From: an uncultured Bacilli bacterium
GTDB taxonomy: Bacteria; Bacillota_I; Bacilli_A; RF39; UBA660
Direction of reading: 5' to 3'
Assembly (NCBI GenBank): GCA_934162445.1
Contig: CAKPIT010000003.1
Coordinates: forward strand, 64,928 to 128,927
Length of the DNA stretch: 64,000 bases
The position numbers and the translations under genes are program-made. Position 1 is the first letter of the stretch. Every line of letters begins with the position of its first letter. The notes beneath the pieces are model-generated. The model saw nothing but the letters and a program-made list of their open reading frames with translations. It had not been told where the DNA came from and did not search any database. Below, one piece after another: positions 12,317-59,998 of the stretch.

Positions 12317-13360
12317 ATGGATGAGAGAGTTGTCTCTAAGGAAGAACTAAAAGATGATGGTATCATTGATAATACCATAAGGCCTGAAGTCTTAGATGAA
12401 TATATTGGTCAGTCTGAAGTTAAAGAAAATATTAGAGTTTTTATTGAAGCTGCCAAAATTAGAAAAGAAGTTTTAGATCATGTTTTATTATATGGTCCTC
12501 CCGGTCTTGGAAAAACAACTCTTGCCTTTATTATCGCAAGAGAATTAGGCGTAAATATTAAAACGGCCAGCGGTCCATCCATTGAAAAAAGTGGTGATTT
12601 AGCGGCTATTTTATCAACTCTTGAACCGGGTGATGTTCTTTTTATTGATGAGATTCATAGAATGCCTCGTTACATTGAAGAAATACTATATCCCGCTATG
12701 GAAGATTTTACCCTTGATATTATTATTGGCAATGATTCTGGTTCAAGAAGTATTAAAATAGATCTTCCTCCCTTTACCCTAGTAGGGGCTACCACAAGAG
12801 CCGGTGACTTATCAAGCCCATTACGAGATCGGTTTGGAATTGTAGCTAAATTAAAATTTTATACCAATAGTGAGTTAAGTGATATTATTACAAGAACCAG
12901 TAGAGTCTTGAATATGCCAATTACGAAAGAAGCAGCTATGGAACTTGCTAGTCGTAGTAGGGGAACGCCAAGAATTGCTAACCGTCTTTTTAAACGGGTC
13001 CGTGATTTTGCTCTTGTTGATCAAAAGGAAGAAATTGATAACAGCCTTTTAGAAAAAGCTCTACAAAGATTAAAAGTAGATAAAAGTGGTTTAGATGAGA
13101 CTGATTATCAACTTTTAAAAGCAATTATTGAACGCTTTAATGGCGGCCCTGTTGGCCTTGATGCTCTAGCTTCCAGTATTGGAGAAGAATCATCCACTAT
13201 TGAAGATGTTATTGAACCATATCTATTACAAGAAGGTTATTTAAAAAGAACCAGTAGGGGAAGAGTTGTTACTCCTCTTGCTTACAAACATTTAAATATT
13301 CCTTATCAAAATGGTTTATTTAACTTTAACTTTTCAGATGACAAAGAAGGTGAAGATTAA
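12317..13360 (+). CDS. ruvB: Holliday junction branch migration ATPase RuvB
   Basis: [14 protein letters not shown] Walker A, DEIHR sensor, C-terminal winged helix. Confidence 0.95.
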
Positions 13361-14385
13361 TGAAAGTTGAAGATTTTGATTATGATTTAGATGAAAATTT
13401 GATTGCCCAAACTCCTTTGAAAGAGCGCGATCAATCTAGGTTAATGGTAGTTGACCGTGAAACTAAAGAAATTAGTGATCATCATTTCCATGATATTATT
13501 GATTATTTAGAAAAAGGAGACACCTTAGTTTTAAATGATACGAAAGTATTACCTGCAAGACTTATTGGTACTAAAGAAAGTACGAAAGCAACGATTGAAG
13601 TATTACTATTAAAAGAAAAAGGAAACGATACATGGGAAACTTTAGTAAAACCCGCAAGAAGAGTACATGTTAACGATATTATTACCTTTGGCAATGACCA
13701 TTTAAAATTAAAGTGCCTTGAAGAAAAAGAAGAGGGTATTAGAGTATTTAAAGCAATTTATAGTGGTATTTTTTATGAAATTTTGGATGAGTTAGGTTCT
13801 ATGCCTCTTCCTCCTTATATTCATGAAAAATTAGAAGATAAAGATAGATATCAAACTGTTTATGCTAAAGAAGTTGGTAGTGCTGCCGCTCCTACGGCTG
13901 GGCTTCATTTTACTAAAGAATTATTAGAAGAAATAGCTAATAAAGGAATTAATGTTGTCTATTTAACACTTCATGTTGGTCTTGGTACTTTTAGACCTGT
14001 TAAAGTAGAAAAAGTTGAAGATCATAAAATGCATAGTGAGTTTTATGAATTAACAAGTGATGTTGCTGCCATTTTGAATGAAACAAGAAAAAAGGGACAT
14101 CGTATTATTGCTGTTGGAACTACTAGTACAAGAACTCTTGAAACTGTTTATCAAAAATATAAAACATTTAAAGAAGATCGGGGCTTTACTGATATTTTCA
14201 TTTATCCCGGTAAAGAGGTTTTAGGAATTGATGGTTTGATTACTAATTTTCACTTGCCTAAATCAACTCTTATCATGCTAGTATCTGCTATTGCCGGTAA
14301 AGATTTAATCATGAAAGCCTATCATCATGCTACTTTAGAAAAATATCGTTTCTTTTCATTTGGCGATGCAATGTTCATAAAGTAG
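13360..14385 (+). CDS. queA: S-adenosylmethionine:tRNA ribosyltransferase-isomerase QueA
   Basis: [26 protein letters not shown] and the full-length QueA fold; conserved ruvAB-queA synteny. Confidence 0.95.
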
Positions 14386-14435
14386 TTGAAAAACAAAAAA
14401 AGATAAGATATAATAAGCGTATTGGAGGAAAATAT

Positions 14436-15713
14436 ATGGAAAATAAAGAAACAAAAACTAAAAACAAACATGAAATAGAAATTACGATAGATAAAGAAGT
14501 ATGGGCTAAAGCTCAAGATGAAGCTTTTAAAACTTTACAAAAAGATGCCAAAATAGATGGTTTCCGTAAAGGAAAATGTCCTAAAGATATTTATATTAAG
14601 AAATTTGGTGACAGTAGAATTCTTTTAGAAGCTGCTGATATTACTGTTGAAGATGCTTATAAAAAAGCCCTTAATGACAGCAAATTAATTCCTGCTGTAA
14701 GTCCTAAAGTAGATTTAAAAAGCGTTGATGATCAAAGTGTTACTTATAAATTTACAATCATTACTAAACCCGATGTAAAAGTAAACAAATATAAAGAATT
14801 AGGTATAAAACCTAATATTGTAACAATTGAAAAAGAAGAAATTGATCATGAAATTGAACATTTACTAGAAAAATATAAAGAATTGGTTAACAAAGATGAT
14901 GATACTGTAGTAGCTTCAGGAGACGTTGCTATCATTGATTTTGAAGGATTCAAAGAAGGGGTTCCATTCGATGGTGGTAAAGGTGAAAACTATTCTTTGA
15001 AAATTGGTAGCAATACTTTTATTCCCGGCTTTGAAGATCAATTAATTGGTATGAAAAAAAATGAAGAAAAAGAAATTAAAGTTACTTTCCCAGAAGATTA
15101 TATGGAAGAAAGCTTAAAAGGTAAAGAAGTAACTTTCAAAGTAAAAGTAAATGACATTAAAGAAGAAAAAACACGCGACTTAGATGAAGATTTCTTCTTC
15201 GATTTAGGCCTTGAAGGTGTTGATTCTGAAGAAAGCTTACGTAAAGAAGTAGAAGCTAATATTAAAGCCAATAAAGAAATGGATGAAGAAAATAAATATA
15301 TTGATCGTCTATTAGAAGCTATTGCTAAAAATGTTGAAGTAGATATTCCTGAAGAAATGGTTGAAGAAGAAGTTGATCGTCTATTAAAAAGAACTGAACA
15401 ATCACTTGCCATGCAAGGAATAAGTTTAGATATGTATTATCAATTTACTAAAACTAAAGAAGAAGATTTACGTAATCAATTAGAAAAAGAAGCTTACCAA
15501 AATGTTTTATATCGTTTAATGCTTGAAGAAATTATGAAACTAGAAAAAATTGAAGTAAGTAAAGAAGAAGCTAAAATAGAAGCTGAAAAATTAGCTAAAA
15601 AATATGAAATGGAATTAGATGCATTCCTTAATGAGTTTGGTGGTCTAGATATGGTTCAATATGACCAAGAAATGCGTAAGACTATTGAATTATTAAAAGA
15701 ATTAAATAAGTAA
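14436..15713 (+). CDS. tig: Trigger factor
   Basis: N-terminal ribosome-binding motif GFRKGK, central FKBP-type PPIase and an acidic C-terminal arm. Confidence 0.9.
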   Translation: MENKETKTKNKHEIEITIDKEVWAKAQDEAFKTLQKDAKIDGFRKGKCPKDIYIKKFGDSRILLEAADITVEDAYKKALNDSKLIPAVSPKVDLKSVDDQSVTYKFTIITKPDVKVNKYKELGIKPNIVTIEKEEIDHEIEHLLEKYKELVNKDDDTVVASGDVAIIDFEGFKEGVPFDGGKGENYSLKIGSNTFIPGFEDQLIGMKKNEEKEIKVTFPEDYMEESLKGKEVTFKVKVNDIKEEKTRDLDEDFFFDLGLEGVDSEESLRKEVEANIKANKEMDEENKYIDRLLEAIAKNVEVDIPEEMVEEEVDRLLKRTEQSLAMQGISLDMYYQFTKTKEEDLRNQLEKEAYQNVLYRLMLEEIMKLEKIEVSKEEAKIEAEKLAKKYEMELDAFLNEFGGLDMVQYDQEMRKTIELLKELNK

Positions 15714-15770
15714 AACTTGCAACATTAGTAAGTTTTTGATATAGTGTTAAAGAAACAAGGAGGGATTATA

Positions 15771-15935
15771 ATGGCAAAAGTAGGTAATAGACAACATAAG
15801 ACATTCGTATGTACTGTTTGTGGAGAAGAAAATTATCGTGAAGAAAAAAATGTAAGAAATACTCCAGATCGTCTTGAAATAAAGAAATATTGTCCAAAAT
15901 GTGGTAAACATACTACCCATAAAGAGAAAAAGTAA
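15771..15935 (+). CDS. rpmG: 50S ribosomal protein L33
   Basis: [22 protein letters not shown]...[17 protein letters not shown], a Cys4 zinc ribbon; start placed at the ATG 8 nt after RBS AAGGAGGG, which is internal to the longer ORF-track frame. Confidence 0.85.
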
Positions 15936-15963
15936 TAACTAATAAACAAAAGGAGGTAAAACC

Positions 15964-16521
15964 ATGGTTAACTCAAATGATTTAAAAGTAGGAATGACCG
16001 TTCAATATGAAGGTGGAATCTATAGTGTTCTTGATAGTCAACATGTTAAACCGGGAAAAGGTGCCGCTATTGTAAAGGCTAAACTAAAAAATTTAAGAAC
16101 TGGTTCTATCGTTGAAAAGACTTTAAATGCCGGTGTTAAAATTGAAACTGCCCATATTGAAAAAAGACCAATGCAATTTTTATACAGCATGGGTAATACC
16201 TATTATTTTATGAGCATGACAGATTATGATCAAATAGAACTTGATAAATCAGTTATTGGTGATGATACTAAGTATCTTAAAGAAAACCTTGAAGTAGAAG
16301 TAATTTTCTTTGAAGGGGAAATGTTAGGTATGAATTTACCAGACAAAGTAACTATGAAAATTGTTAAAACAGAAGATGCCGTTAAAGGTAATACTTCAAG
16401 TGGTGCTTTAAAAAATGCTGAACTAGAAACTGGAATGATGATTCAAGTACCATTATTTATTAAGCAAGATGAAGAAATTTTAGTTAGTACTAAAGATGGT
16501 AAATATGTATCACGTGCATAA
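15964..16521 (+). CDS. efp: Elongation factor P
   Basis: Canonical EF-P KOW domain with the modification loop VKPGKGAA; 185 aa. Confidence 0.95.
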   Translation: MVNSNDLKVGMTVQYEGGIYSVLDSQHVKPGKGAAIVKAKLKNLRTGSIVEKTLNAGVKIETAHIEKRPMQFLYSMGNTYYFMSMTDYDQIELDKSVIGDDTKYLKENLEVEVIFFEGEMLGMNLPDKVTMKIVKTEDAVKGNTSSGALKNAELETGMMIQVPLFIKQDEEILVSTKDGKYVSRA

Positions 16522-16553
16522 AAAAATGAACTTTAATTTGAAGCTCATTTTTT

Positions 16554-17147
16554 TTAATCAATAATTCTTCCAATTCGGAAACTATATAACTTTTCTTTTT
16601 TATAGTACTTTAAACTACATTCAATTCCTTGATACTGGAAAAACTCTGAAGTTTTACTATCATCATCTTTGGTATTACCAAGTGTTTCAAATACTTTATC
16701 ATAAATCATTTTGGCTGTTTTCTTATCAACTGCCTCATTATTAGCTTGAATTAAACCAATAATAATATTCTTAGCAGTATTATTTTTCTTTTTAAAATCA
16801 ACTTTACTAATCGTTACATTATTATCATCATCAAGATAAAAAGTAATATCATTATCATTAATGGTAATAGAGTTATCAACTGTATTATTAATCTTTAAAT
16901 CATCATTATTAATAATTTCATTATATTTATCAACATAATCATCAAAACTAATATTTTCAAGGCTAACAAGTTTAGTTAAATCACTAAAATCTTCCTTCTT
17001 CATTTTTTCTTCCATTGCTTTTTTATCAATAACACTCTTTGTTATTTCCGTAGCCAATAAATAACAAATTATTCCTAATACTAAAGTAGTAATAACTAAG
17101 ATAACTATTTGTCGTTTTTTAAGCTTTTCGTTCTTTTTCTTTTTCAT
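16554..17147 (-). CDS. Hypothetical membrane-anchored protein
   Basis: Lys-rich N-terminus plus one TM helix (IVILVITTLVLGIICYLL), then an Asn/Asp-rich ectodomain; shares a bidirectional hairpin terminator with efp. Confidence 0.4.
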   Translation of the reverse strand: MKKKKNEKLKKRQIVILVITTLVLGIICYLLATEITKSVIDKKAMEEKMKKEDFSDLTKLVSLENISFDDYVDKYNEIINNDDLKINNTVDNSITINDNDITFYLDDDNNVTISKVDFKKKNNTAKNIIIGLIQANNEAVDKKTAKMIYDKVFETLGNTKDDDSKTSEFFQYQGIECSLKYYKKEKLYSFRIGRIID

Positions 17148-17268
17148 ATAACATCACCATTATCAGTATAACATAAACTTGACATTAAAAGTGTAAATTT
17201 TCCTATATTTTTTGTAAAATAATTGTTATACTAATAATGATAATAACATTACTAAAAAGGAGGTTAAC

Positions 17269-17523
17269 ATGATCTTATCTAGCTATCCTAAAATTGATCT
17301 TCATGGTATGGATCAGGAATATGCTCTTTTTAAAGTAAATGATTTTATTAATGATTCTTTAAAATTAAAGTATCCTAAAATAGTTATAATTCATGGTATT
17401 GGAGAAGGAATATTAAGAAATGCTACCATAAATTATTTAAAAAAAGACAAAAGAGTCCTTAAGTATGAACTTGATATTACGAATCCCGGTTGTACCTTAG
17501 TAACACTTAAATTTGACAATTAG
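17269..17523 (+). CDS. Smr-domain protein (small MutS-related nuclease domain)
   Basis: 84 aa; IDLHGM...A......FI......KIVIIHGIGEGILR matches the Smr LDLHG...ITGKG core; RBS AAAGGAGG. Confidence 0.5.
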   Translation: MILSSYPKIDLHGMDQEYALFKVNDFINDSLKLKYPKIVIIHGIGEGILRNATINYLKKDKRVLKYELDITNPGCTLVTLKFDN

Positions 17524-17571
17524 AGTATCTTGTGTTATAATATGGCCAGCTTATTGAAAGAAGGGGTAAAT

Positions 17572-18522
17572 ATGTATACAGAAGAGAATACCGTAAAAAG
17601 ATTTCCACTACGAAATATCTTATTAAAAGTAATGGTGGTTATTGTTTTCTTATTATTAGTTATTTTTATTATATCTAAAATATCTACACCAACTGTAAAA
17701 ACAGCATCAACTAAAACTTATGATAAAGTATTTAACAAAAACTTAAACTCGATGGAAAAGGCTGCATTAACATACTATACTAAAGACAATCTCCCACTTA
17801 ATGTTGGAGATGTTAGTGAATTAACATTAAGAGAAATGATTAATAAAGAATTATTAGATTCCTTTACTGATGCTAATAAAAAAGCCTGTGATGTTAATGC
17901 TAGTTCCATAAAACTTACTAAAAATGATAATAATTATACTTTAAAAGTTACCTTAAAATGTGCTAATAAAAAAGACTATAAATTAAGTGAGTTAGGTGAA
18001 TATAAGTATTGTAAAAATACCTTATGTAAGAAAGACTCTTCTAAAGAGGAAAAAGAACAAGATAAAAATACTGATTCTAAAGTAACAGATAAAGTTCCAA
18101 TTACAAAAGAAGAAACTAATACATCAAGTAGTCAAAATAATTCAACTACTAAAAACAATACGCAACCATCTAAACCATCCACATCAACAAAAACTGCATC
18201 TAAATCATATGAATACAAAAAAGTAACACCTAAGGTTTTATCAAAATGGAGTAGTTGGAGTCCTTGGGCTTACAATAATGATGGTTATCAAGAAATTAAA
18301 TGTAATAGTACTGATAGTACTTGTCTAAAAGAAATTCAACTATATAGTAGAACCGAATATATTGGTACTCAAAATGGTGAAAAACTATATGGTAAAGTAA
18401 CATACTATAGTTATCGTACACGAAGTGTTGTTAGTGAAGAGCAAATAGATATTAAATGGAGTAGTTATAATGATACTAGCTTACTAAATAATGGTTATAG
18501 CTACACTGGAAAAGAAAAATAA
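17572..18522 (+). CDS. Hypothetical membrane-anchored, Cys/Thr/Ser-rich surface protein
   Basis: Start placed at the ATG after RBS AAGGGGT and a TATAAT box (17535-17540); N-terminal TM helix then a Lys/Thr/Ser-rich extracellular region with scattered Cys. Confidence 0.4.
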   Translation: MYTEENTVKRFPLRNILLKVMVVIVFLLLVIFIISKISTPTVKTASTKTYDKVFNKNLNSMEKAALTYYTKDNLPLNVGDVSELTLREMINKELLDSFTDANKKACDVNASSIKLTKNDNNYTLKVTLKCANKKDYKLSELGEYKYCKNTLCKKDSSKEEKEQDKNTDSKVTDKVPITKEETNTSSSQNNSTTKNNTQPSKPSTSTKTASKSYEYKKVTPKVLSKWSSWSPWAYNNDGYQEIKCNSTDSTCLKEIQLYSRTEYIGTQNGEKLYGKVTYYSYRTRSVVSEEQIDIKWSSYNDTSLLNNGYSYTGKEK

Positions 18523-18534
18523 GGAGTGATAATT

Positions 18535-19827
18535 ATGAATAATGAAAAAAGAAAATATACAGTAGATGCCATCTACTGGTTAAACAAAGAAGATTTAGAA
18601 GAAGGAATGCCAAGATATATAGCTGTTCGTAAAGATAAAGAAACAGGAGCTTATTCATGGTATTTTACTGATGATGATATTAAAGGAAGAACTTTAATTA
18701 GCAATTATTTAAAAGATAGTGGTTATTCTAAAAAGACTGATACTCTAGAAGATATTGCTGAAAATAATTATAAATTTATAAGAGGAATTAAAAAGCCATA
18801 TTATGCCGCTGTTTATTATGCTAGTGCTACTAATAAATCATTAGCAACTGAATTTGATGAAACTTATCTAAGATATCAAAATGGTGAAGATTTAGATAAA
18901 GAAGCTTCTTCTCAAGAAGAACAAGTTACTGAAGAAAGTACCAAGAAAGTTGGTTTCTTTACAAGATTAAAAAATAAGATTCAAGATAAAGTTCAATCAA
19001 AATTATCTAAAGAAACAAAAGGTAAAGGTAAACATGCTTTTGTAAGAGTAGCTGCTGTTATGACTGCTTTAGTATTAGGTATTGGAGGTCTTTGTAAATT
19101 ATCAAGAAAAAATAATCCAGCGGATAAAGGAGCAAGAATTGTTACTGAAAGTACAACTAACACTAAAGTTCCTACTACTAATAAGTCTGAACCAGTTACT
19201 AACCCTTCTAGTAATGAAGTAGTAAATAAAGAAGAAACAGTAACACCTGCTACAACTTCATGTACTTATAATAGCAATAGAGAAAATCAAATGGGTAAAT
19301 ATAATGTTTACAATCCATCTCCAAGCGATGAAGGCTTTACTGCTCCAGATAAAGAATTTCAAGATCCTAATGCTAAAATAGATGATGTAAATACTCCATC
19401 AACCCCAACAAATCCAAGTGATACGCCATCAATCATTGAAGGTGAAGAACCAATAAATAATGGTAATAACAATAATAACAGTGGAGAAACTATTGATGTT
19501 GACGGTGATAATATTGACTATAAAGATAATTTAACAGGAAATGCTGTTGGAAACATTACTAAAGATCCAACTGATGATAAATCTAATGAACCATTACCAA
19601 ACCCTGATGATACTGCAATAGATAATGGCTTTGATATGAGTAATAGTGAATCAACAGATAATTATGTTCCTGTTTATCAAAAAAACTCTCTAGAAGATGC
19701 TGTTACTGAAACAATGACCGCTCTTGAAAATGGAGAAAACGTTAATATGGTATTTGATCCTAATACAAATACATGGAAAACTGAACAAGTTCCCGTTACA
19801 ACTCAAACTGAAGGTTTAAGCAAATAA
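18535..19827 (+). CDS. Hypothetical bitopic membrane protein with a disordered Asn/Thr/Pro/Asp-rich C-terminal region
   Basis: Start placed at the ATG 8 nt after AAGGAG; a ~185-aa cytoplasmic-looking domain, one central TM (AFVRVAAVMTALVLGIGGLC), then a ~230-aa low-complexity tail. Confidence 0.4.
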   Translation: MNNEKRKYTVDAIYWLNKEDLEEGMPRYIAVRKDKETGAYSWYFTDDDIKGRTLISNYLKDSGYSKKTDTLEDIAENNYKFIRGIKKPYYAAVYYASATNKSLATEFDETYLRYQNGEDLDKEASSQEEQVTEESTKKVGFFTRLKNKIQDKVQSKLSKETKGKGKHAFVRVAAVMTALVLGIGGLCKLSRKNNPADKGARIVTESTTNTKVPTTNKSEPVTNPSSNEVVNKEETVTPATTSCTYNSNRENQMGKYNVYNPSPSDEGFTAPDKEFQDPNAKIDDVNTPSTPTNPSDTPSIIEGEEPINNGNNNNNSGETIDVDGDNIDYKDNLTGNAVGNITKDPTDDKSNEPLPNPDDTAIDNGFDMSNSESTDNYVPVYQKNSLEDAVTETMTALENGENVNMVFDPNTNTWKTEQVPVTTQTEGLSK

Positions 19828-19885
19828 GAATAGAAAACTTTACTATCTATTCTTTTTTTGTTACAATAATAAAGAAGAATAGTGG

Positions 19886-21667
19886 TTGATTTGTATGATA
19901 AATGATTTCAAAACTTTAAAATTAGAACCAGTAAAAGAACTAGATCAAGGTTTAAAAAATTTTCTTAATGATCTTGAGATGACTATTGAAACTGAAAAGA
20001 TAAATGCCATTAAGACTTTAACCAATCAGCTATTTAGTCACTATATTAATCTTATTGTAACTATTCAAGATAGCCTAACTAAAGAAGAACTTGCCACCTT
20101 TACGGCAAAAGAAGAAGAGTATGAACAAGCTATAACCAAGCTTAAAGAAAATGCCACCTCCCTAGAAACTATCAATAATCTTTATCAAGATATAGAAACA
20201 AGTTATAATGACTTAAAAACTTTAAGTACCAAAAAACTAGAAACCAATGCCATCTATAAAGAATTTAATGATTTAATTATGAAAATAAATGTTAATCTTG
20301 ATCTTTTAGCTAATATTTCTATACCCGATAATGAAGAAAAAGAAATAAAAGAGTTAATCACTAATTTTAATGATACCAAAGATAAAGAATTTTTAACACG
20401 TCTTTTAAATAAAACCCAAAATCTATTACAAGAAGAACCATCATCTAAAACTTCTTATCAAGTTTTTTCTCTTTTTACTGACATAACCCCTAAAATTAAA
20501 GATACTTATACTTTAATCCAAAATGATCTAACATATATTAAATACCACTTAATAGATAATAGTTTTTATTATGCTATTATTAAGCAAAAAGAAGATCTAG
20601 ATTCATTAATTAAAGAATTTAAACCTATAACTAATCTTATCCTAGATAAAGAACATATCATTAAAACTTGTGAAGAAATCATTAAAAACATTGAAATATA
20701 TTATAATATTAAAGAATATGTTACCTTTTTGATAGCTACCAAAAAAGAACAAGACTTCTTAAAATACCAATCTATTTTAACCGATTATGAATCAAAACTA
20801 AAAAGTCAATTTTCTTTTCTTCATGAACTTGCATTATTAGTTAATCATAAACCAAGTAAAATGTATCCTACTTTAGTCTATAATGGTGAACCATTTTCTA
20901 AAAGTACAAGTAATACTTTAACCGAAGATTCTCTTATTGCTAATATTTTTATGAACTATCAAGAAGATATTAATTTAGATACCAAAATGATTTTAACCCT
21001 TATTTATGACCATGATGTAGTAGATGATTTATATAATGCTAATTATAATGGCCACAAAAAAGAAATCAATAACTATACTAAAATTAGGAACTATTTAAAT
21101 CTAAGACTAAAAGAAATGGAAGAGTTGAAAACTTCTTCTCTAATAACAACCACTTTAAAAAAAGAGGATATATCCCTATATAAAGATGTCAATACCATAA
21201 TTGATATACAAATTGCTATTATTATTTGTGATAAAACATATAAAGAAGGGCAGGGCTTCTATGCTTTAGAAGACTATCTTAAATCAAACACCTTACAAAA
21301 ATTCACATCAAAGTATGGTTGCCGTAATCTTGTAAAAACTATTAACCGGCCAACTCTAATCAAACTCTTAGGAGAAAATATTTTAAAAAGATATCTTTTG
21401 GATAATCACAATCCGCAAATTACTTCGTTCCTAGATCAAACATTACTATCTAACAATTGTTCTCCTAATGATTTCGTTAACAAGTTAATAACTACTCCTG
21501 ATATTTTAAAACTAGCCATCTTTGACTTTAATTACAACTTTTTAGATAGTACTTCTGAAGATTCATTAACTGTCGTTAAAACAATTAAAAATACTGATCT
21601 TGCTAATGATAATTTAACCACCAGATGTATAAATCTCCTAATAAATATTAAAAAATATGATAAATAA
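19886..21667 (+). CDS. Hypothetical protein (large, helical/coiled-coil-like)
   Basis: 593 aa, no TM and no recognisable catalytic motif; followed by a hairpin (21724-21741) and a weak terminator (21774-21816). Confidence 0.4.
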   Translation: MICMINDFKTLKLEPVKELDQGLKNFLNDLEMTIETEKINAIKTLTNQLFSHYINLIVTIQDSLTKEELATFTAKEEEYEQAITKLKENATSLETINNLYQDIETSYNDLKTLSTKKLETNAIYKEFNDLIMKINVNLDLLANISIPDNEEKEIKELITNFNDTKDKEFLTRLLNKTQNLLQEEPSSKTSYQVFSLFTDITPKIKDTYTLIQNDLTYIKYHLIDNSFYYAIIKQKEDLDSLIKEFKPITNLILDKEHIIKTCEEIIKNIEIYYNIKEYVTFLIATKKEQDFLKYQSILTDYESKLKSQFSFLHELALLVNHKPSKMYPTLVYNGEPFSKSTSNTLTEDSLIANIFMNYQEDINLDTKMILTLIYDHDVVDDLYNANYNGHKKEINNYTKIRNYLNLRLKEMEELKTSSLITTTLKKEDISLYKDVNTIIDIQIAIIICDKTYKEGQGFYALEDYLKSNTLQKFTSKYGCRNLVKTINRPTLIKLLGENILKRYLLDNHNPQITSFLDQTLLSNNCSPNDFVNKLITTPDILKLAIFDFNYNFLDSTSEDSLTVVKTIKNTDLANDNLTTRCINLLINIKKYDK

Positions 21668-21880
21668 TTGTAATTTACGAAAACTCGTACTTGTATCTTT
21701 TATAAATTTATTATATATTGTTATTGGGAAGTATTTCCCAAGTCACCAAACCTTCTTTACCATCTGTTTGTTTAAGTCGCCCATTTAAACATAAAAGAAA
21801 GCTGGTGGCTTTTTTATTATAGTAAAATAAGAGTGATTTACTATGAAAGAATATGAATTAAACAAATAAAAATAAATGTA

Positions 21881-21908
21881 TTGACAATCGCAAATAATAT
21901 GATAAAAT
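21881..21908 (+). promoter_or_regulatory. Sigma-A-type promoter with extended -10 (TTGACA-16-TGaTAAAAT)
   Basis: TTGACA at 21881-21886, TG at 21900-21901, TAAAAT at 21903-21908; the small ORF RBS follows about 20 nt downstream. Confidence 0.5.
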
Positions 21909-21934
21909 ACTTTTTAATTGATTTAAGGAGAGCT

Positions 21935-22081
21935 ATGGAAAATATGTACTATAACCCAAATATTAAATTTAATAAAAAAATAAGTGTTAGAAAAAAATGC
22001 CATACTAACGCTGTTTGTTCATGTGTTCTTCTTGGCTTAATTAAAAATAAAATAATGACGGTGACTGAAATTTCATTATAA
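21935..22081 (+). CDS. Small ORF (48 aa) at the head of the operon; candidate leader or precursor peptide
   Basis: Strong SD AAGGAGAG 5 nt before the ATG; MENMYYNPNIKFNKKISVRKKCHTNAVCSCVLLGLIKNKIMTVTEISL; it lies downstream of the promoter, whereas the ORF-track frame begins inside the -35 box. Confidence 0.3.
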   Translation: MENMYYNPNIKFNKKISVRKKCHTNAVCSCVLLGLIKNKIMTVTEISL

Positions 22082-22124
22082 CATAATGAGTTTCGGCACC
22101 GTTTTTTTGTGGGAGGTGTTTTGA

Positions 22125-23558
22125 TTGATTACATTACAAAATTTACTAAACAAAATAAAAGAATATAATTCAGAAGAAGTAAAAGTAGTAGAAAAAGCCT
22201 ACGAATATGCTAATGTTTTACATCAAGGTCAAATGAGACAAAGTGGCGAACCATATATAAGTCATCCTTTAAATGTAGCCTATATATTAGCAGAAATGCA
22301 CGCTGATAAAGATACAATATGCGCTGGCCTTTTACATGATACGTTAGAAGATACTAGTATTGCAAAAGAGGATATTGCTCATGAATTTAATCAAAATGTT
22401 GCCAATTTAGTAGATGGAGTAACAAAATTATCCAAGATGAATTTTTCATCTAAGCAGGATCAAAATTATGCTAATACAAGAAAGATAATAACTGGAATAA
22501 CAGATGATGTTAGAATAATCATCATCAAACTTGCTGATAGACTTCATAATATGAGAACATTAGGATTTAAATCTGAATTTAAACAAAAAGAAAATGCACT
22601 TGAAACAATGGAAATATTTGTTCCTCTTGCTTATTATATTGGAGCGTACAGAATTAAATCTGAATTGGAAGATTTATCTCTTCAATATTTAAAACCAGAT
22701 ACATATAAAAATATTGAAGAAAGAAAACTAAAATTAGAAGAATCAAGTAATGCGTGTTTAAATGAGATGTTTTATAAAATAAAAGCTTTATTAGATAATC
22801 AAAACATTCCAAATGAAATAAAAATAAGAACAAAAAACATTTATGGTATATACAAAAGATTAAGCGAAGGCCACAAATTATCTGATATACATGATTTATT
22901 ATCACTTAAAATAATGGTAGATGAAATAGCTAATTGCTATCTTACCCTAGGAATGATTCACAAAGAATATCATCCAATCAATGATAAGTTTAAAGATTAT
23001 ATTTGTAATCCCAAAACTAATATGTATCAAAGTTTACATACAACAGTATTTGGTCCAGATGATAGATTAGTTCAAACCCAGATAAGAACTTTTGCAATGG
23101 ATAGAGTAGCCTCATTTGGATTAACCGCATATTGGAATGAACAAAAAGGTAAAGCAAGAGATATAATGCAAGAAAACTTAAGACAAAAATTTCAGTTTTT
23201 TAAATCTTTAATAGAAATTAATTCCATGTTTGGAGATAATCAACAATTTGTAAAACAAGTTAAAAACGAATTATTTGCAGACAGGATATATGTTTATACT
23301 ACCAAAGGTGATGTTATTGAATTACCAAAGGGGTCCACGCCAATAGATTTTGCATATAAAATTCATACTGATATAGGTAATACAATGATTGGTGCATTTG
23401 TTAATGATGAATATGTACCAGTTGATTATATATTACAAAATAAAGACAGAGTAAAAGTTATTACAGATGATTATTCTTTTGGTCCAAGAGAAGAGTGGAT
23501 TGAAAAAACACAAACTAGTTTAGCAAAAAGAAAAATTAAAGAATTTAATAGAAAATAG
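22125..23558 (+). CDS. Truncated long-RSH: HD (p)ppGpp hydrolase + RelA/SpoT synthetase + TGS domain, lacking C-terminal ZFD/ACT domains
   Basis: TTG start 5 nt after GGGAGGTG; HD motif HPLNVAYILAEMH...LLHDTLEDT; synthetase motifs RTKNIYGIYKRL, DIHDLLSLKIMV, YQSLHTTV; TGS IYVYTTKGDVIELPKGSTPIDFAYKIHTDIGN; 477 aa versus 717 aa for the canonical Rel at 48207. Confidence 0.8.
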   Translation: MITLQNLLNKIKEYNSEEVKVVEKAYEYANVLHQGQMRQSGEPYISHPLNVAYILAEMHADKDTICAGLLHDTLEDTSIAKEDIAHEFNQNVANLVDGVTKLSKMNFSSKQDQNYANTRKIITGITDDVRIIIIKLADRLHNMRTLGFKSEFKQKENALETMEIFVPLAYYIGAYRIKSELEDLSLQYLKPDTYKNIEERKLKLEESSNACLNEMFYKIKALLDNQNIPNEIKIRTKNIYGIYKRLSEGHKLSDIHDLLSLKIMVDEIANCYLTLGMIHKEYHPINDKFKDYICNPKTNMYQSLHTTVFGPDDRLVQTQIRTFAMDRVASFGLTAYWNEQKGKARDIMQENLRQKFQFFKSLIEINSMFGDNQQFVKQVKNELFADRIYVYTTKGDVIELPKGSTPIDFAYKIHTDIGNTMIGAFVNDEYVPVDYILQNKDRVKVITDDYSFGPREEWIEKTQTSLAKRKIKEFNRK

Positions 23559-23580
23559 CAACTTTTTATGGAGGAAAAAT

Positions 23581-24834
23581 ATGAATATATACATTTATGA
23601 AAATATTAAAAAAAATATAGATGATTTAAAATTTGAAGTAGTAGAAACAAAAGGAAAAGGTCACCCTGATAATATTTGTGATACCTTAGCAGAAAAAATT
23701 TCCGCAAATTACTCGAAATATTGTTTAGAAAACTATGGTGTTATTTTACGACATATGATAGATAAACTTTCTATTTTAGGTGGCGGGTCAAAAGTTTATT
23801 TTGGTAAAGCACAAATTATATCTCCAATACGAATACTTGTTAACGGGCGATTTACAAATCGATATAAAGAAGAAAATATAGATTATATGAAAATTGTAGA
23901 GTATACAATTAAGAAATATTTTAAAGAGTTATTTCCACTGCTTGACTGTGAAAAATATTTAAAAATAATAGATAATACTCATCATAACGAAGGCCCGGGA
24001 GTTATTTATAACGACGACAACACCACTAACAATGATAGAAAAAAATTTTTTGAAGTTTCAAACGATAATGATATGCTAAATCATAATAATCAATTTAAAT
24101 GCAATGACACTTCAACAACAGTTAGTTATTATCCCATGAGTAAACTGGAACAAACTGTTTTAAAAATAGAACAAACTCTTAATTCTAATGAATATTCAAA
24201 AATGAATCCTTGGGTTGGTAGTGATATCAAGGTAATGGGAATTAGAAAAGACAATAAAATAGAAATCACTAGTTGTGTTCCACTAATATCAACATATGTA
24301 CTAAGTTTAGAAGATTACAAAAGCAAAATAAAAATAATAAAAAAAGATATTAGAGAAGTCGTAAAGTCTTTTTTTCCTGAAAATCCCATATTAATCTATC
24401 TAAATACTAGAGACAACTATGAAAAAAACGATTTATATTTAACAGCTATAGGAAGCGCAGTTGAAAGTGGCGATGAAGGTGCAGTTGGCCGTGGTAATCG
24501 CTCCAGAGGTGTTATTCCATTTTGTAGAAATTTTAGTATGGAAGCTCCATGTGGAAAAAATCCTGTTTATCATACAGGGAAATTATTTACAGCAATAGGT
24601 GATATAATAAGTAAGAAAATATATGATCAATATAATTTGGAGAATGTTGTATATTGTACTTCAAAAATGGGTGATAACATTAAAAATCCATGGAATATTA
24701 GTGTAGAGTTAAATGCTCCAATTACAGCCGACAATATAAAGAAAATTAATGAATTAATAGAAACAGAAATTAGTAATCATAGAGACGTTACTTATAAAAT
24801 AATATCTAACACAATAAAGTTAAATAGTTATTAA
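23581..24834 (+). CDS. Archaeal-type S-adenosylmethionine synthetase (MAT, PF01941-like)
   Basis: It aligns by eye along its length with M. jannaschii MAT: [19 protein letters not shown] vs [59 protein letters not shown] vs [80 protein letters not shown] vs [40 protein letters not shown]. Confidence 0.8.
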   Translation: [417 protein letters not shown]

Positions 24835-24844
24835 GAGGTGAGGT

Positions 24845-25834
24845 ATGGATAAAAAATTATTATATTATTCAGAACTAAATAATTATTTTTTACAAAAAGA
24901 TTATAATTGTATTAAACCATTTCCCGTTGAAAATAATAATGATACTATTTTTTTAACAGCTGGTATACAACCAATTTTGAAACAATTTAGAGAAAATAAT
25001 TTATTAAATTCAAAAAAAGTCTATGTTTCGCAACCAGTTATTAGAACGCAATTTATGAACAGTTTATCTGAAGGATCTTCACTAGCATTTATTAATTCAA
25101 CAACCGCTGGATTTAATATATCTGAAAATGAGCATAAAAACTTAGTTAAAGATTGGTTAGAATTATTTTCTATTGTTGGTTTAAAATCATCTAACATCAC
25201 TACATATAGTAAAAATTATGAACGTATTTGGGGAGATTTATTGGTATCCGGAGAAAAAACATTTTATTATTATAATGGCTTGGAATTAGGTGATACAACA
25301 TTTTTTACCAAAATATCTAAAGATAATTGTAATATTGGTATTGAAACAATAAGTGATGTTGGATTTGGCTTAGAAAGAATAAGATGGTGTGTAAACAAAT
25401 CTTCATATTTTGATTTGTATAGCGATAGTAGTGCTATATCACCCCCAATCAAAGCTTATTTATCTGCACTTGCTCTATTGTGTGTAAATGACATTAAACC
25501 ATCAAATAAAAATGCAGGTTATAGATATAGAATGTTTTCTAAAAAATTAGCATTTCTTTTAAATGGGCACGAATTATCTTTTAATGAAGAAAAATATTTG
25601 ATAGAAAGTATAAGATATTGGTCTGAATGGCAAAAAAATGATAATAATGTTGACATTATACTTTTTAAAAAAGAGTATGTTAGGAACTGTAATAGATATA
25701 TAATTGATACATTAAATCGAGAAGGATATAAAAATTTATCTGGAATTGACATTAATATTTCAAGAGAAGAAATGCAAAAAAGATTAATTTCTTCTGGTGT
25801 AAAGAAAGAAAAAATAAAAAAATTATATAAATAG
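24845..25834 (+). CDS. Stand-alone alanyl-tRNA-synthetase catalytic-core homologue (class IIc aaRS fold), lacking tRNA-recognition, editing and C-Ala domains
   Basis: Collinear matches to the E. coli AlaRS N-terminus: NDTIFLTAGIQPILKQF vs DPTLLFTNAGMNQFKDVF; VYVSQPVIRTQ vs ATTSQRCVRAG; DVGFGLERIRWCVNK vs DTGMGLERIAAVLQH; PSNKNAGYRYRMF vs PSNENRGYVLRRI; only 329 aa. Confidence 0.65.
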   Translation: MDKKLLYYSELNNYFLQKDYNCIKPFPVENNNDTIFLTAGIQPILKQFRENNLLNSKKVYVSQPVIRTQFMNSLSEGSSLAFINSTTAGFNISENEHKNLVKDWLELFSIVGLKSSNITTYSKNYERIWGDLLVSGEKTFYYYNGLELGDTTFFTKISKDNCNIGIETISDVGFGLERIRWCVNKSSYFDLYSDSSAISPPIKAYLSALALLCVNDIKPSNKNAGYRYRMFSKKLAFLLNGHELSFNEEKYLIESIRYWSEWQKNDNNVDIILFKKEYVRNCNRYIIDTLNREGYKNLSGIDINISREEMQKRLISSGVKKEKIKKLYK

Positions 25835-25889
25835 AAAGGGATCAATCTAATAGATTAATATTTTTATAAGATTGATTATATGAGAAAAT

Positions 25890-26564
25890 ATGAAATTGTT
25901 TTTATGTGGTGGGGGATCAGGAAAGCAAATAGAAAAAGCTTTAAATGAATTTTCTTTAATAATAGATAAATCAAAGCCCATATTATATGTTCCATTAGCA
26001 ATGGCTAAAGAAAAATATGATAGTTGTTATTTATGGTTTCAAGAAGAAATAAAAAAGATAAACATAGATAAATTTGAAATGGTTACATCAGCCCTTGAAT
26101 TATCTGAAAAAAATTTTCATGATTATAGCGCTCTTTTTATTGGTGGTGGCAATACTTATAAATTATTAGCAGAAATAAAACAATATGGCAATTATGAAAA
26201 AATAGTAAATTACTTAAATAACGATGGCCTTATTTTTGGTAGTAGTGCAGGGGCTATTATCTTTGGTAAAGATATAAACAGTTGCTTACTTGATGATGAA
26301 AATAATATAAATTTAAAAGATACAGTGGGCTTTAATTTATTAAATGATTATTCTATACTGTGTCATTTAACTAAAAACAACTTAGAAAAAAACTGTTCGT
26401 ATTTAAAAGAGTATTCTCAAACTACCAAAGTAATATATTTACCAGAAGAAGATGTTATTGAACTTGATAATGCTGGAACAAAAATTTTAGGTACTAAAAA
26501 TTATGTAGTATTTATTGCTGGTGAATACAGATGGCAAGATTGTGATAGTTTTAAAATATCTTAA
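25890..26564 (+). CDS. Peptidase S51 family (dipeptidase E / cyanophycinase-like, class I glutamine amidotransferase fold)
   Basis: FLCGGGSGK...ALFIGGGNTYKLL...LIFGSSAGAI contains the S51 GGN and SAG(A) nucleophile-elbow motifs. Confidence 0.65.
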   Translation: MKLFLCGGGSGKQIEKALNEFSLIIDKSKPILYVPLAMAKEKYDSCYLWFQEEIKKINIDKFEMVTSALELSEKNFHDYSALFIGGGNTYKLLAEIKQYGNYEKIVNYLNNDGLIFGSSAGAIIFGKDINSCLLDDENNINLKDTVGFNLLNDYSILCHLTKNNLEKNCSYLKEYSQTTKVIYLPEEDVIELDNAGTKILGTKNYVVFIAGEYRWQDCDSFKIS

Positions 26565-26587
26565 TAAGAAATTAATAATACTAAAAT

Positions 26588-26632
26588 AATACAAATAATA
26601 GACTTCAAAAGGCTTTATATTTGTATTTTTTT
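26588..26632 (+). terminator. Rho-independent terminator closing the 21.9-26.6 kb operon
   Basis: Stem AATACAAATA ... TATTTGTATT (10 bp perfect) followed by TTTTTT. Confidence 0.6.
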
Positions 26633-26688
26633 CTTTTCTTTAATTAAAATATAGTCTATAATAAGTAAAGAGAAAAGGAGTGGTAAAA

Positions 26689-48206: not shown

Positions 48207-50360
48207 ATGAAAAAAGATTTAATTACCATCGATGATTTGATGGATAAAGTTGATACTTATATAAAAGATCCCAAAGAGCGGGGAGAAATTCTAAAAGCCT
48301 ATTTTTATGCCAAAGAAAAACATCGTGGCCAGTATCGTCAGAGTGGGGAAGACTACATTACCCACCCTTTGAATGTGGCTTTGATTCTTACTAATGTTTA
48401 TGCTGACTATGAATGCCTTGAAGCGGCTCTTTTACATGACGTGTTAGAAGACTGTGATGTCAAAGATGACGAATTTAAAGAAACTTTTGGTTCAGTTATC
48501 TATAATCTAGTTGATGGCGTTACCAAACTATCTCGTCTTCATTTTTCTACTGATAATGAATACTTAATTGAATACTATCGAAAAATTATAGTAGGGATGA
48601 GCGAAGATGTCCGGGTCATTATCGTTAAACTAGCAGACCGTCTTCACAACATGCGTACTCTTTGGGCCATGCCCCCATTAAAACAAAAAAAGAAATCAAA
48701 AGAAGTACTAGAAATTTTTGCTCCACTTGCCCATCATTTAGGTATTCATAAAATCAAAAGTGAGCTTGAAGATTTAGCCTTACGATATTTAAAACCAACT
48801 GTTTTTTATGATATTGCCGATAAACTTAATAAAACTAAAGCGGAACGTGATAGTACCGTTTATGAAATGCAAGATGTTGTTACTAATCTTTTAAATGAAC
48901 ATCACATTCCTCATGAAATAAAAGGCCGGGCTAAAAGTATTTATAGTATTTACAACAAACTTGATAAAGGGAAAAAATTTAGTGATATCTATGACTTACT
49001 AGCTATTAGAATTTTAGTCGACACCGAACAAGATTGCTACTTAGCCCTTGGTCTCATCCATTCGAAATTTAGACCCTTACCCAAACGATTTAAAGACTAT
49101 ATTGCTATGCCTAAACCAAATATGTATCAATCCCTTCATACAACCGTCTTTGGTATTGATGGTTACCTTTTCGAAATTCAAATTAGGACTTATGAAATGG
49201 ATGAAGTCGCTGAAAATGGAATTGCCTCTCACTGGGCTTATAAGGAAAATGGTGGTAGTGCTAAAACTGCTAATTTACAATCCACCACTTCCCAAAAACT
49301 TCAATTTTTCAAAGAAATAATGGAATTATCTAATGACAAAATGAGTAGTGAAGAATTTGTTACCAGTGTTAAAGATGAAGTTTTAAATAACAATATCTAT
49401 GTCTTTACGCCTAAAGGCGATGTTATTGAACTACCTAAAGGATCAACTCCTCTTGACTTCGCTTATAAAGTTCATACGAAAGTAGGGGAGACCACGGTCG
49501 GTGCTTTAATCAACGGTTCCATTGCTCCTCTTGATTATGAACTTAAAAACAATGATATTGTCAAAATTATTACCAAAGTTAATACTCATCCCTCTAAAGA
49601 ATGGCTAAACATCGTTAAAACTACGCAAGCCAAAAACAAAATAAGAAGTTATTTTAGTAAGAGTGAAAAAGAAGTTTTAATCGAGCGGGGTAAAGATTTA
49701 TTAGAAAAAATCTTGAGAAAACGAAAAATTGCCCTTACAGAATTTTACAAAGATGAGCATTTAAAACTTATCTACAAAGAAGTAAAAGTAGATAATCTTG
49801 ATGATTTATACTATGATATTGGTAAGGGTAAACATACTGCTAATAACATCATTAATATTGTTTTCAAAGATGAAGAAGAAAAACCAAAATTATTAAAAAC
49901 AATCACTAAAACTAATATAGATAACACATCATCCATTATGGTTGCTGGTCTTGATAAAGTTAAAGTAACTTTCGCATCCTGCTGTAAACCTGTTTATGGA
50001 GATCAAATAGTTGGTTATATTACTAAAGGTAATGGTATTAGTGTTCATCGTAGTAATTGCCATAACTTAACCACCTTAGAAGACCGCTGTATTGAAGTTA
50101 AATGGACTAAAGCCGATAATTTAAAATACAACAGTATCCTCATCATTAGAACAAACACCTTAGAAAATCGCTTAGCCGATATTATTCAAAGAACCAGTAT
50201 GCTTAATATTAATATTTCCTCAATTAAAACTATTTCAAGAGATGAATATGCTACTTATGAGATGGAAATTTTAGTTAAAGATAAAGATAGTTTGGCGAAA
50301 TTATTACTAGATTTAGAAAATTTACCATATATTACAAGTGTAGAGAGGTTAATGAAATGA
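48207..50360 (+). CDS. rel: Bifunctional (p)ppGpp synthetase/hydrolase Rel (full-length long RSH)
   Basis: 717 aa with HD, synthetase (RAKSIYSIYNKL, YQSLHTTV), TGS, a Cys-containing ZFD (CCKPVYGDQIVGYITKGNGISVHRSNC) and ACT domains; conserved secDF-rel-dtd synteny. Confidence 0.95.
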   Translation: MKKDLITIDDLMDKVDTYIKDPKERGEILKAYFYAKEKHRGQYRQSGEDYITHPLNVALILTNVYADYECLEAALLHDVLEDCDVKDDEFKETFGSVIYNLVDGVTKLSRLHFSTDNEYLIEYYRKIIVGMSEDVRVIIVKLADRLHNMRTLWAMPPLKQKKKSKEVLEIFAPLAHHLGIHKIKSELEDLALRYLKPTVFYDIADKLNKTKAERDSTVYEMQDVVTNLLNEHHIPHEIKGRAKSIYSIYNKLDKGKKFSDIYDLLAIRILVDTEQDCYLALGLIHSKFRPLPKRFKDYIAMPKPNMYQSLHTTVFGIDGYLFEIQIRTYEMDEVAENGIASHWAYKENGGSAKTANLQSTTSQKLQFFKEIMELSNDKMSSEEFVTSVKDEVLNNNIYVFTPKGDVIELPKGSTPLDFAYKVHTKVGETTVGALINGSIAPLDYELKNNDIVKIITKVNTHPSKEWLNIVKTTQAKNKIRSYFSKSEKEVLIERGKDLLEKILRKRKIALTEFYKDEHLKLIYKEVKVDNLDDLYYDIGKGKHTANNIINIVFKDEEEKPKLLKTITKTNIDNTSSIMVAGLDKVKVTFASCCKPVYGDQIVGYITKGNGISVHRSNCHNLTTLEDRCIEVKWTKADNLKYNSILIIRTNTLENRLADIIQRTSMLNINISSIKTISRDEYATYEMEILVKDKDSLAKLLLDLENLPYITSVERLMK

Positions 50361-50791
50361 GAGTTTTAGTTCAAAGATGTAAAAAGGCCAGTTGCCTTGT
50401 TGATAGAAAAACTATTTCTTCTATTAATGAAGGCTTAGTCCTTTTCGTTGGTTTTACGGATACAGATACTTTTGATACCATTACCAAAATGGTTACCAAA
50501 ATTATTAATCTACGGATTTTTCCAGATAGTGATGGGATAATGAATTTATCAATCCATGATTTAAATCTAAGTATTTTATCAATTTCCCAATTCACGTTAT
50601 ATGCTGATACTAAAAAAGGAAATCGTCCTAGTTATCTAAAAGCTTTAAAGAGTGATAAAGCCAAAGAATTATATGATTTTTTCAATCAAGAATTAAAGAA
50701 ACATTTAAAAACCGAAACAGGGGTGTTTGGCGCCGATATGGAAATAGAACTCATTAATATGGGTCCAACTACTATTTTATTGGAGAGGTAA
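50357..50791 (+). CDS. dtd: D-aminoacyl-tRNA deacylase
   Basis: MRVLVQRCKKASCLV...GLVLFVGF and the C-terminal SQFTLYAD motif; overlaps the rel stop. Confidence 0.9.
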   Translation: MRVLVQRCKKASCLVDRKTISSINEGLVLFVGFTDTDTFDTITKMVTKIINLRIFPDSDGIMNLSIHDLNLSILSISQFTLYADTKKGNRPSYLKALKSDKAKELYDFFNQELKKHLKTETGVFGADMEIELINMGPTTILLER

Positions 50792-59921: not shown

Positions 59922-59998
59922 GGACCCTTAGCTCAGTTGGTTAGAGCATCCGGCTCATAACCGGACGGTCGATGGTTCGAGTCCATCAGGGTCCACCA
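59922..59998 (+). tRNA. tRNA with CAU anticodon (sequence resembles the lysidine-type tRNA-Ile2; alternatively elongator tRNA-Met)
   Basis: GGACCCTTAGCTCAGTTGGTTAGAGC...TCCGG-CTCATAA-CCGGA...GGTTCGAGTCC...AGGGTCCACCA; G1-C72 pair (so not an initiator); encoded CCA. Confidence 0.8.

Follow-up and report, generated by a model that had tools for sequence, protein, structure and literature searches.

The five-gene operon at positions 21881-26632 of a 64,000-nt stretch of DNA from an uncultured Bacilli bacterium (GenBank assembly GCA_934162445.1, contig CAKPIT010000003.1; the whole stretch is called the window, and its GC content is low, ~28%) joins two units that lie side by side. Unit A consists of a promoter, a leader, a terminator and rel477, a truncated second Rel. 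Unit B consists of the genes for an archaeal-type methionine adenosyltransferase (MAT), a protein resembling alanyl-tRNA synthetase (AlaRS) that is here called AlaL, and a hydrolase of the S51 family (S51). MAT-AlaL-S51 is a conserved three-gene unit that has been kept in tiny-genome bacteria and whose function is predicted only, and it is this core, rather than the Rel part, that is the finding worth following. The best explanation of the whole, to which a probability of roughly 0.4 was given, is a hydrolase-only Rel unit with an attenuator, placed next to a ligase/hydrolase cassette of S-adenosylmethionine (SAM) type. The features of the locus are as follows.

21881-21908, + strand: sigma-70 type promoter with an extended -10 (TTGACA-16-TAAAAT, upstream TG, 11/12 positions)
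21935-22081, + strand: leader open reading frame (ORF) of 48 codons, with the ribosome-binding site (RBS) AAGGAGAG ahead of ATG 21935
22057-22110, + strand: strong intrinsic terminator/attenuator, stem 22057-22103 followed by U7 (-22.5 kcal/mol, z -5.1)
22125-23558, + strand: rel477, 477 aa, Rel-like with HD, SYNTH and TGS domains
23581-24834, + strand: MAT, 417 aa, archaeal-type methionine adenosyltransferase
24845-25834, + strand: AlaL, 329 aa, AlaRS-like
25890-26564, + strand: S51, 224 aa, S51-family hydrolase
26583-26632, + strand: weak AT-rich terminator hairpin with a U-run (-9.2 kcal/mol, z -3.2), 5' of hisS

The promoter, the five co-directional ORFs and the gaps between them (43, 22, 10 and 55 nt, in order) were all found as the first-pass annotation of this DNA had described them. 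The domain identities that it had assigned also held, through Pfam for Rel, MAT and S51 and through structure and profile alignment for the AlaRS-like protein. Its 3' terminator was upheld in part, as the hairpin and the U-run exist but the structure is weak, and the strong terminator between the small ORF and rel477 had been missed.

The unity of MAT, AlaL and S51 was evident from a survey of homologous loci in genomes and metagenomes (L-numbers). The survey comprised 22 genome loci, 3 of them from Patescibacteria, and 80 metagenome loci that were found with a 19-sequence AlaL subset as the query; because the latter matched a query from the 370-420-aa type of AlaL, they were treated as mostly Patescibacteria-like. 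The best-named relative was Candidatus Aphodocola (Bacilli incertae sedis), and the other relative loci belonged to metagenome-assembled genomes whose labels read uncultured Tenericutes, Bacilli or 'Mycoplasma sp. CAG:776'. With redundant loci and those with too little flank set aside, S51 adjoined AlaL in 15/15 Bacilli loci and 43/48 other loci, and MAT lay within 2.5 kb of AlaL in 14/14 and 26/27, respectively. The genes occurred in two arrangements, either MAT>AlaL>S51 on the same strand or AlaL>S51 convergent with MAT, which indicates that the linkage is more than operon inheritance. Natural fusions were also present, of AlaL with S51 in L034 and L035 (568 aa) and of S51 with a GT1 glycosyltransferase in L061 (568 aa).

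The flanks varied between the Bacilli cassette loci, which indicates that the cassette moves as a block, and hisS and aspS were located 3' of it in several Bacilli. The proposal that the operon is an accessory insertion was thus supported by the variable flanks among genomes, but the window itself gave no compositional signal: the GC content of 22-26.6 kb (0.25-0.28) matched that of the flanks, and a compositional island was rejected. A defence island or phage origin was rejected as well, since PADLOC identified no system, its sole match being a weak one between the SYNTH region of rel477 and PDC-S33 (E 4e-7), and no relatives were found on viral contigs.

Beyond the three core genes, the commonest immediate cassette neighbour was seryl-tRNA synthetase (SerRS; 14/82), in both divergent and co-operonic positions, followed by GT1/GT4 glycosyltransferases (6/82), radical SAM proteins (5/82) and inositol-1-phosphate synthase (MIPS; 3/82). 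In the hidden Markov model (HMM) map, GT1/GT4 genes stood 3' of S51 in about ten non-Bacilli loci, and MIPS was upstream of the cassette in three loci. An aminotransferase of class III and a GFO/IDH/MocA oxidoreductase occurred in L033 together with an AlaL fusion, MAT and GT4. Nothing was conserved among the second-ring neighbours of the cassette.

Two individual neighbourhoods are recorded as side observations. Near the L003 cassette, positions 12438-20987 contain a PIG-L gene, a tRNA, a gene for a Shedu-type SduA_C protein, metK and a DUF3800 gene, and may constitute a variable or defence region. Positions 11497-16977 of L034, 3' of the AlaL-S51 fusion, hold a second cluster of peptidase and aminoacyl-tRNA synthetase (aaRS)-like genes, with two aaRS-like genes of class IIa (409 and 389 aa), one gene for a methyltransferase, another for a tRNA-synt_2 core of 373 aa that has no anticodon domain, and a last one for an S66 peptidase of the MccF/LD-carboxypeptidase family.

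The literature searched contained no account of the cassette or of the AlaL family, and searches for AlaRS paralogues, aminoacyl-SAM and S51 together with a SAM synthetase returned AcmF alone. The view that this composition is not a described system was sustained by the lack of a literature match and of a PADLOC system; the AlaRS-like protein also has no model in Pfam or NCBIfam. The cassette is shared by Patescibacteria-like bacteria and some Bacilli of the human and animal gut, and a unit so constant in such small genomes probably does something that the cells cannot drop.

MAT was identified with the least difficulty. It matched PF01941 over its full length (3.1e-98, 329.7 bits against a gathering cut-off of 27) and aligned with the solved archaeal enzymes 7p83 and 4hpv (E 2e-62) as well as with 7p82; the motifs GHPDxICD, NDTS, DIKVMG, GDxGxVGRGNR and GKNPV were all aligned with the solved archaeal MATs. 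Its score was below all NCBIfam equivalog cut-offs (best 305.4 versus 481; cut-offs 435-577). MAT was also the best-conserved member of the cassette, at 68-75% identity among Bacilli cassettes compared with ~55% for AlaL and S51. In addition to the cassette, the genome of L003 has a bacterial metK that is preceded by a SAM riboswitch (16630-16754), so MAT is an extra copy there, and the idea that it is the sole SAM synthetase everywhere was ruled out by this locus. In L053-L058, one related metagenome group whose AlaL segments all gave the same match to the query, MAT is represented by two consecutive MAT-matching ORFs, reflecting a split gene or a recurrent frameshift.

AlaL of the window had no match in Pfam or NCBIfam, and its relatives gave tRNA-synt_2c matches that were faint or sub-threshold. 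A search of the PDB with the single sequence gave nothing, and a profile search gave weak AlaRS matches only. Nevertheless, the earlier designation of an AlaRS catalytic core was substantiated by two comparisons. The AlphaFold2 model (pLDDT 90) matched AlaRS catalytic fragments in Foldseek (E 1e-11 to 1e-8, TMq 0.60-0.68), with GlyRS-alpha next, and a profile of 84 members aligned with canonical AlaRS in hhalign with a probability of 98.1%. Across these 84 diverse members, the motif-2 arginine (R67), the motif-3 arginine (R178) and the phenylalanine after motif 2, which is the adenine-stacking residue, were invariant, and D171, the equivalent of Asp235, and G-x-G-L-E-R were nearly so. The positions of the amino acid pocket are small like those of AlaRS, with Ile/Val where AlaRS has Met43, Trp at Trp170 and Gly at Gly237; two others are changed, Asn212 to Asp and Trp211 to Gly. 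Retention of the motif-3 arginine favours real use of ATP, and AlaL would be predicted from these residues to adenylate an amino acid.

The protein ends at 329 aa inside the helical domain, and the editing and C-Ala domains are absent. The isoelectric point (pI) of residues 1-195 is 5.5 and that of residues 196-329 is 9.6. The C-terminal helical domain keeps PSNKxxGYRxR, corresponding to the segment of AlaRS that contains Asn303, a residue that contacts U70 (PMC6055181). The position of Asp400, which with Asn303 forms the pair that recognizes G3:U70, appears by eye not to be Asp in AlaL, the hhalign alignment stopping before that position. In L031 a canonical AlaRS is encoded 8 kb from AlaL, so AlaL is a paralogue, and the candidate identity of a housekeeping AlaRS of reduced genomes was rejected.

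The close homologues of AlaL (n=137) are all ~329 aa and come from uncultured gut Firmicutes. A full HMM search extended the family to 406 clusters at 50% identity, most of them 370-420 aa in length with an N-terminal extension. Some of the long proteins (P0153 and P0263; the 370-420-aa type, presumably from Patescibacteria) have an N-terminal CxxC...CxxxxC segment resembling a zinc ribbon, and P0263, of 674 aa, ends in an additional domain of ~290 aa without a Pfam match.

S51 matched the Pfam family Peptidase_S51 (4e-22, 79.3 bits against a gathering cut-off of 23.9) and is a Ser-His-Glu hydrolase related to PepE and Lmo0363. The triad S119/H159/E186 was conserved in 100/100/96% of 96 cassette S51 sequences. 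Its scores were far below the NCBIfam equivalog cut-offs for PepE and cyanophycinase (51.6 versus 156 and 19.6 versus 126.6, respectively).

Unit A is a different matter. The window contains a second Rel gene, in a pair spanning 48207-50791.

48207-50360, + strand: full-length bifunctional-type Rel, 717 aa, with RelA_AH_RIS and ACT_4 and an intact EIQIRT
to 50791, + strand: dtd, after the full-length Rel

Thus rel477 is an extra copy, as the first-pass annotation had stated. It matched HD_4 (1.4e-41), RelA_SpoT (5e-28) and TGS (2.2e-21) in Pfam; TGS is the only domain of its C-terminal region, the protein stopping 30 residues beyond it, and the CC and ACT domains are absent. The hydrolase residues H47, H71-D72, E75-D76 and D138-R139-H141-N142 were invariant in an alignment of five Rel sequences, and the hydrolase motif LLHDTLED was matched in 117/120 of the closest rel477 homologues. 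The synthetase motif reads QTQIRT in rel477 and QxQIRT in all 120 homologues, with Gln where ExQIRT has its catalytic Glu, which we take to be E324 of Bacillus subtilis Rel; ASFG likewise replaces AExG in all 120. The E324V variant of B. subtilis Rel is synthetase-dead (PMC7098656). On the strength of these substitutions and the kept hydrolase motifs, rel477 is in all likelihood a second-copy Rel that bears TGS and only hydrolyses. It would serve as a (p)ppGpp-type 3'-pyrophosphohydrolase that retains TGS and has lost the C-terminal ribosome-regulatory domains and, most likely, synthetase activity. The substitution of the synthetase Glu runs counter to the suggestion that rel477 makes a special alarmone or pyrophosphorylates the tRNA CCA end in the manner of toxSAS enzymes.

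The distribution of Rel separated it from the cassette. By tblastn of 32 loci, an intact rel next to the cassette was found in the window and in L019 and L020, at 68-72% identity. The Rel of L003 was very divergent (28% identity) with a gutted SYNTH region, fragments only were present in L012, L014, L016 and L027, and the remaining loci had none. The metagenome locus L060 has an intact 479-aa Rel directly upstream of MAT. Outside the cassette, at least 120 clusters of 475-482-aa Rel proteins at 85-87% identity to rel477 were found, for example in Clostridium sp. CAG:710, and one cluster of these truncated proteins occurred on 112 contigs, indicating abundance in human-gut CAG:710-like bacteria. 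Two stand-alone Rel loci were inspected in CAG:710-like genomes. Both had a GNAT gene 3' and no cassette, and upstream both had the same promoter, 48-codon ORF and terminator. The notion of one five-part system therefore failed on two counts: Rel joins the cassette only in one gut-Bacilli sub-lineage and is decayed in several relatives, and its close homologues stand alone with the same leader.

The leader travels with this unit. The small ORF as originally listed begins at a TTG inside the -35 box, and the plausible start is ATG 21935, giving 48 aa. TTGACA occurs at the equivalent site 5' of the leader in L019, L020, L016, L027 and L116, and the layout of promoter, RBS, short ORF and terminator recurs in 9 related loci. 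In L011 and L013, from which rel is gone, a leader of the same kind lies directly ahead of MAT. The 5' arm of the terminator overlaps the final leader codons. No promoter-like site was seen between the terminator and the rel477 start, so transcription of rel477 needs read-through.

The leader ORFs of the window and of L116 (CAG:710-like) are both 48 codons long with zero indels and differ at 39/147 nt, split 11/14/14 by codon position, and the leader peptides are unrelated among loci; the leaders were too divergent for covariation analysis. This pattern suggests that translation of the ORF, and not the encoded peptide, is conserved. Because leader length and frame are kept while the differences are flat across codon positions, a regulatory upstream ORF with an attenuator fits, and the leader ORF is likely of this type rather than a source of a product peptide, which is how the small peptide had first been read. 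A functional peptide or a precursor of a RiPP, a peptide made by the ribosome and modified after translation, was rejected on the same grounds. A known riboswitch, T-box or other RNA family was also rejected, as Rfam gave no credible match in 21650-22200 at the gathering score or at E up to 10. The leader and terminator would act as a translation-coupled attenuator in front of rel477. A 480-aa Rel with Gln in ExQIRT would thereby offer a natural hydrolase-only, TGS-bearing long RelA/SpoT homologue (RSH) under such an attenuator.

For the cassette, the following mechanism is proposed. MAT-AlaL-S51 would be an old, horizontally mobile unit in which MAT makes SAM, and AlaL uses ATP to activate a small amino acid, of the size of Ala, Ser or Cys, as the adenylate. 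AlaL would then transfer this amino acid to SAM, or to a SAM-derived or adenosyl-type metabolite, at an amine or a hydroxyl. S51 would hydrolyse an amide of this pathway, which may be the bond made by AlaL, the two enzymes forming a make-and-break pair, or a bond broken in the step before ligation, and in some Patescibacteria-like loci the GT4 glycosyltransferase would add a further step. With low confidence, AlaL is thus predicted to be an ATP-dependent amino acid ligase and S51 an amidohydrolase, both working on SAM or on an amine derived from SAM. A SAM or SAM-derived acceptor is favoured because MAT is a near-obligate partner even where metK exists and because a class II active site is shaped to accommodate an adenosine nucleotide; by analogy, the AcmF/AcmD/AcmE precedent on 5'-modified adenosine also favours an adenosyl acceptor. 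It is a tentative proposal, with the odds against it, that the cassette makes and controls an aminoacylated SAM derivative, or else attaches a SAM-related amino acid to an RNA or another acceptor. One option put forward in the first-pass annotation, an aminoacyl-nucleoside type product with a hydrolase, is compatible with the three-gene core. Were the proposal correct, the product would be a new cofactor or metabolite that belongs to the core physiology of many Patescibacteria (candidate phyla radiation, CPR) and was passed to reduced-genome gut Bacilli, and AlaL would be the first repurposed paralogue of AlaRS to depend on ATP. The chemistry would draw on SAM, an amino acid and ATP, and it can be tested directly with the three proteins, which are small and soluble.

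Several points weigh against this explanation. The identity of the acceptor is its weakest step, and the link to MAT could mean a need for SAM and not SAM as the acceptor. The basic helical domain of tRNA-recognition type with its PSN motif, and SerRS as the commonest extra neighbour, point to a role linked to tRNA, for which the support is almost equal. An aminoacyl-glycoside is a better fit for the neighbours of some non-Bacilli loci, namely GT4, MIPS and the oxidoreductase with aminotransferase. The mechanism of AcmF is no direct model, since AlaL retains the ATP-binding residues. For unit A and its junction with unit B, residual or altered synthetase chemistry of rel477 is conceivable, as is an internal promoter ahead of MAT.

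Among the alternatives, a tRNA-linked cassette is possible, though doubtful. AlaL would bind an acceptor stem by way of its helical domain and either charge a tRNA or tRNA-like RNA with a small amino acid or use an aminoacyl-tRNA, such as Ser-tRNA, as donor; S51 would cleave an ester or amide product or by-product, and MAT would give SAM for a coupled modification. Such a role would account for the retained PSNKxxGYRxR, its match to the Asn303 segment of AlaRS (PMC6055181) and the pI of 9.6 of the C-terminal domain, and it would suit the divergent and co-operonic SerRS genes in non-Bacilli loci, hisS and aspS 3' of the cassette in several Bacilli, and the use of Ala-tRNA by AcmF. It is harder to reconcile with the Asp400 equivalent, a positive determinant for G3:U70 that is apparently not conserved in the by-eye alignment, with the absent editing domain, and with the canonical AlaRS that coexists in L031 and leaves AlaL without a housekeeping role. 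The near-obligate link to MAT and the fusion of S51 with a glycosyltransferase would also have no obvious role.

A pathway resembling those of mycothiol and bacillithiol is unlikely. GT4 would make an N-acyl-aminosugar glycoside, S51 would deacylate it, and AlaL, in the manner of MshC, would ligate Cys, Ser or Ala to the amine thus set free, with MAT connected through methylation or sulfur metabolism. In mycothiol synthesis, MshA, MshB and MshC are consecutive pathway enzymes, and the AlaL+S51 and S51+glycosyltransferase fusions place S51 in the middle, as for consecutive steps. The glycosyltransferase genes after S51 in about ten non-Bacilli loci, the three upstream MIPS genes, the aminotransferase and oxidoreductase of L033 and the PIG-L gene near the L003 cassette speak in the same direction. 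On the other hand, GT4 adjoined 0/15 Bacilli cassettes, MAT, the most constant partner, is unexplained, and S51 enzymes are known as Asp-specific peptidases, not as deacetylases.

Less probable again is a regulatory or hitchhiking arrangement, in which MAT is a housekeeping SAM synthetase and AlaL is either a sensor or subunit resembling HisZ or, together with S51, a mere neighbour. HisZ, an aaRS paralogue that regulates a biosynthetic enzyme, is a precedent, MAT is the best-conserved member and looks catalytically normal, and the packing of genes in one direction in non-Bacilli loci is usual for Patescibacteria genomes. However, AlaL keeps all adenylation residues, unlike a purely regulatory paralogue, and the S51 triad is conserved throughout the cassettes. 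The linkage persists where MAT is inverted with respect to AlaL-S51 and after transfer into Bacilli, and L003 already holds a riboswitch-controlled bacterial metK.

An integrated five-gene system, in which a Rel-made alarmone or pyrophosphorylation of the tRNA CCA end is combined with adenosylation and aminoacylation, or which serves as an anti-phage module, would be consistent with tightly spaced co-directional genes behind one promoter, with the tRNA-end affinities of the TGS and AlaL parent families and with the Shedu-like gene near L003, but is highly improbable, having been largely refuted by a Rel that is missing or decayed beside most cassettes and stand-alone elsewhere, by the Gln of its synthetase motif, by the lack of a PADLOC system beyond the weak PDC-S33 match and by the lack of relatives on viral contigs.

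The remaining features of the window lie around the operon and at a distance from it.

ATG likely at 26689, + strand: hisS, gene call in L001

In the window, aspS follows hisS, both being 3' of the cassette. The spacer upstream of hisS (26565-26688) is only ~120 nt and has no T-box by Rfam, unlike many Firmicutes hisS genes; expression of hisS may rely on read-through of the 26583-26632 hairpin or on a TATAAT near 26658. Upstream of the operon, 17530-21667 comprises three consecutive low-complexity ORFs (330, 433 and 593 aa) without a Pfam or PADLOC match, which are present at >99% identity in L001 and had no match in other loci at the threshold used. Two adjacent tRNA genes are located at 59922-60086 (Rfam tRNA scores 73.9 and 58.6 bits).

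Compared with known systems, rel477 looks like an unremarkable representative of a known type, albeit an interesting one. RshC is a second long RSH truncated after TGS that was annotated as [HS] in six Bacillus strains (PMC3153485). Like RshC, rel477 accompanies a full-length Rel as the second long RSH, stops inside or directly behind the TGS/helical region and is without CC and ACT domains, the likeness being one of layout. It differs in occurring in gut Bacillota (CAG:710-like and Aphodocola-like), in the Gln at the synthetase Glu and in its leader-ORF attenuator.

The cassette MAT resembles the archaeal MATs (PDB 7p83, 4hpv and 4l4q) in its full-length PF01941 match and aligned shared motifs. 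It differs from them in an insertion around residues 120-175, in its bacterial host and in the adjoining genes for AlaL and S51.

The reuse of a class II core of ~325 aa without an anticodon-binding domain relates AlaL to EpmA/PoxA (LysRS-like, modifying EF-P), AsnA and HisZ, in which the core serves non-translational ligation or regulation. In AlaL, by contrast, the parent is AlaRS, the helical acceptor-stem domain is kept, and the gene is linked to MAT and S51. The MshC/MshA/MshB and BshA/BshB/BshC systems combine an aaRS-derived ATP-dependent ligase with a GT4 enzyme and an amidohydrolase, and an inositol-phosphate synthase is found near some cassettes. The parent of MshC is the class I CysRS, however, whereas that of AlaL is the class II AlaRS; the hydrolase is PIG-L in the mycothiol pathway and S51 in the cassette; the Bacilli cassettes are without GT4; and MAT has no counterpart.

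Another close precedent is AcmF, a truncated AlaRS-like protein with aminoacylation and tRNA-recognition domains only that acts on a 5'-modified adenosine in ascamycin biosynthesis of Streptomyces sp. 80H647, together with a companion aaRS and an amino-acid-removing hydrolase (PMC12945691). AlaL has a similar architecture and a hydrolase partner, the comparison with AcmF/AcmD/AcmE being by description. AcmF has lost the residues for activation of ATP and Ala and uses Ala-tRNA (PMC12945691), whereas in AlaL the arginines of motifs 2 and 3 and the counterpart of Asp235 are still present. The hydrolase of the cassette is S51 and not an alpha/beta hydrolase, its partner is a SAM synthetase, and its hosts are reduced-genome Bacilli and Patescibacteria-like (CPR) bacteria rather than actinomycete producers. 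AlaRS has almost no known repurposed paralogues, and AlaL represents a whole family of them that keeps the adenylation machinery.

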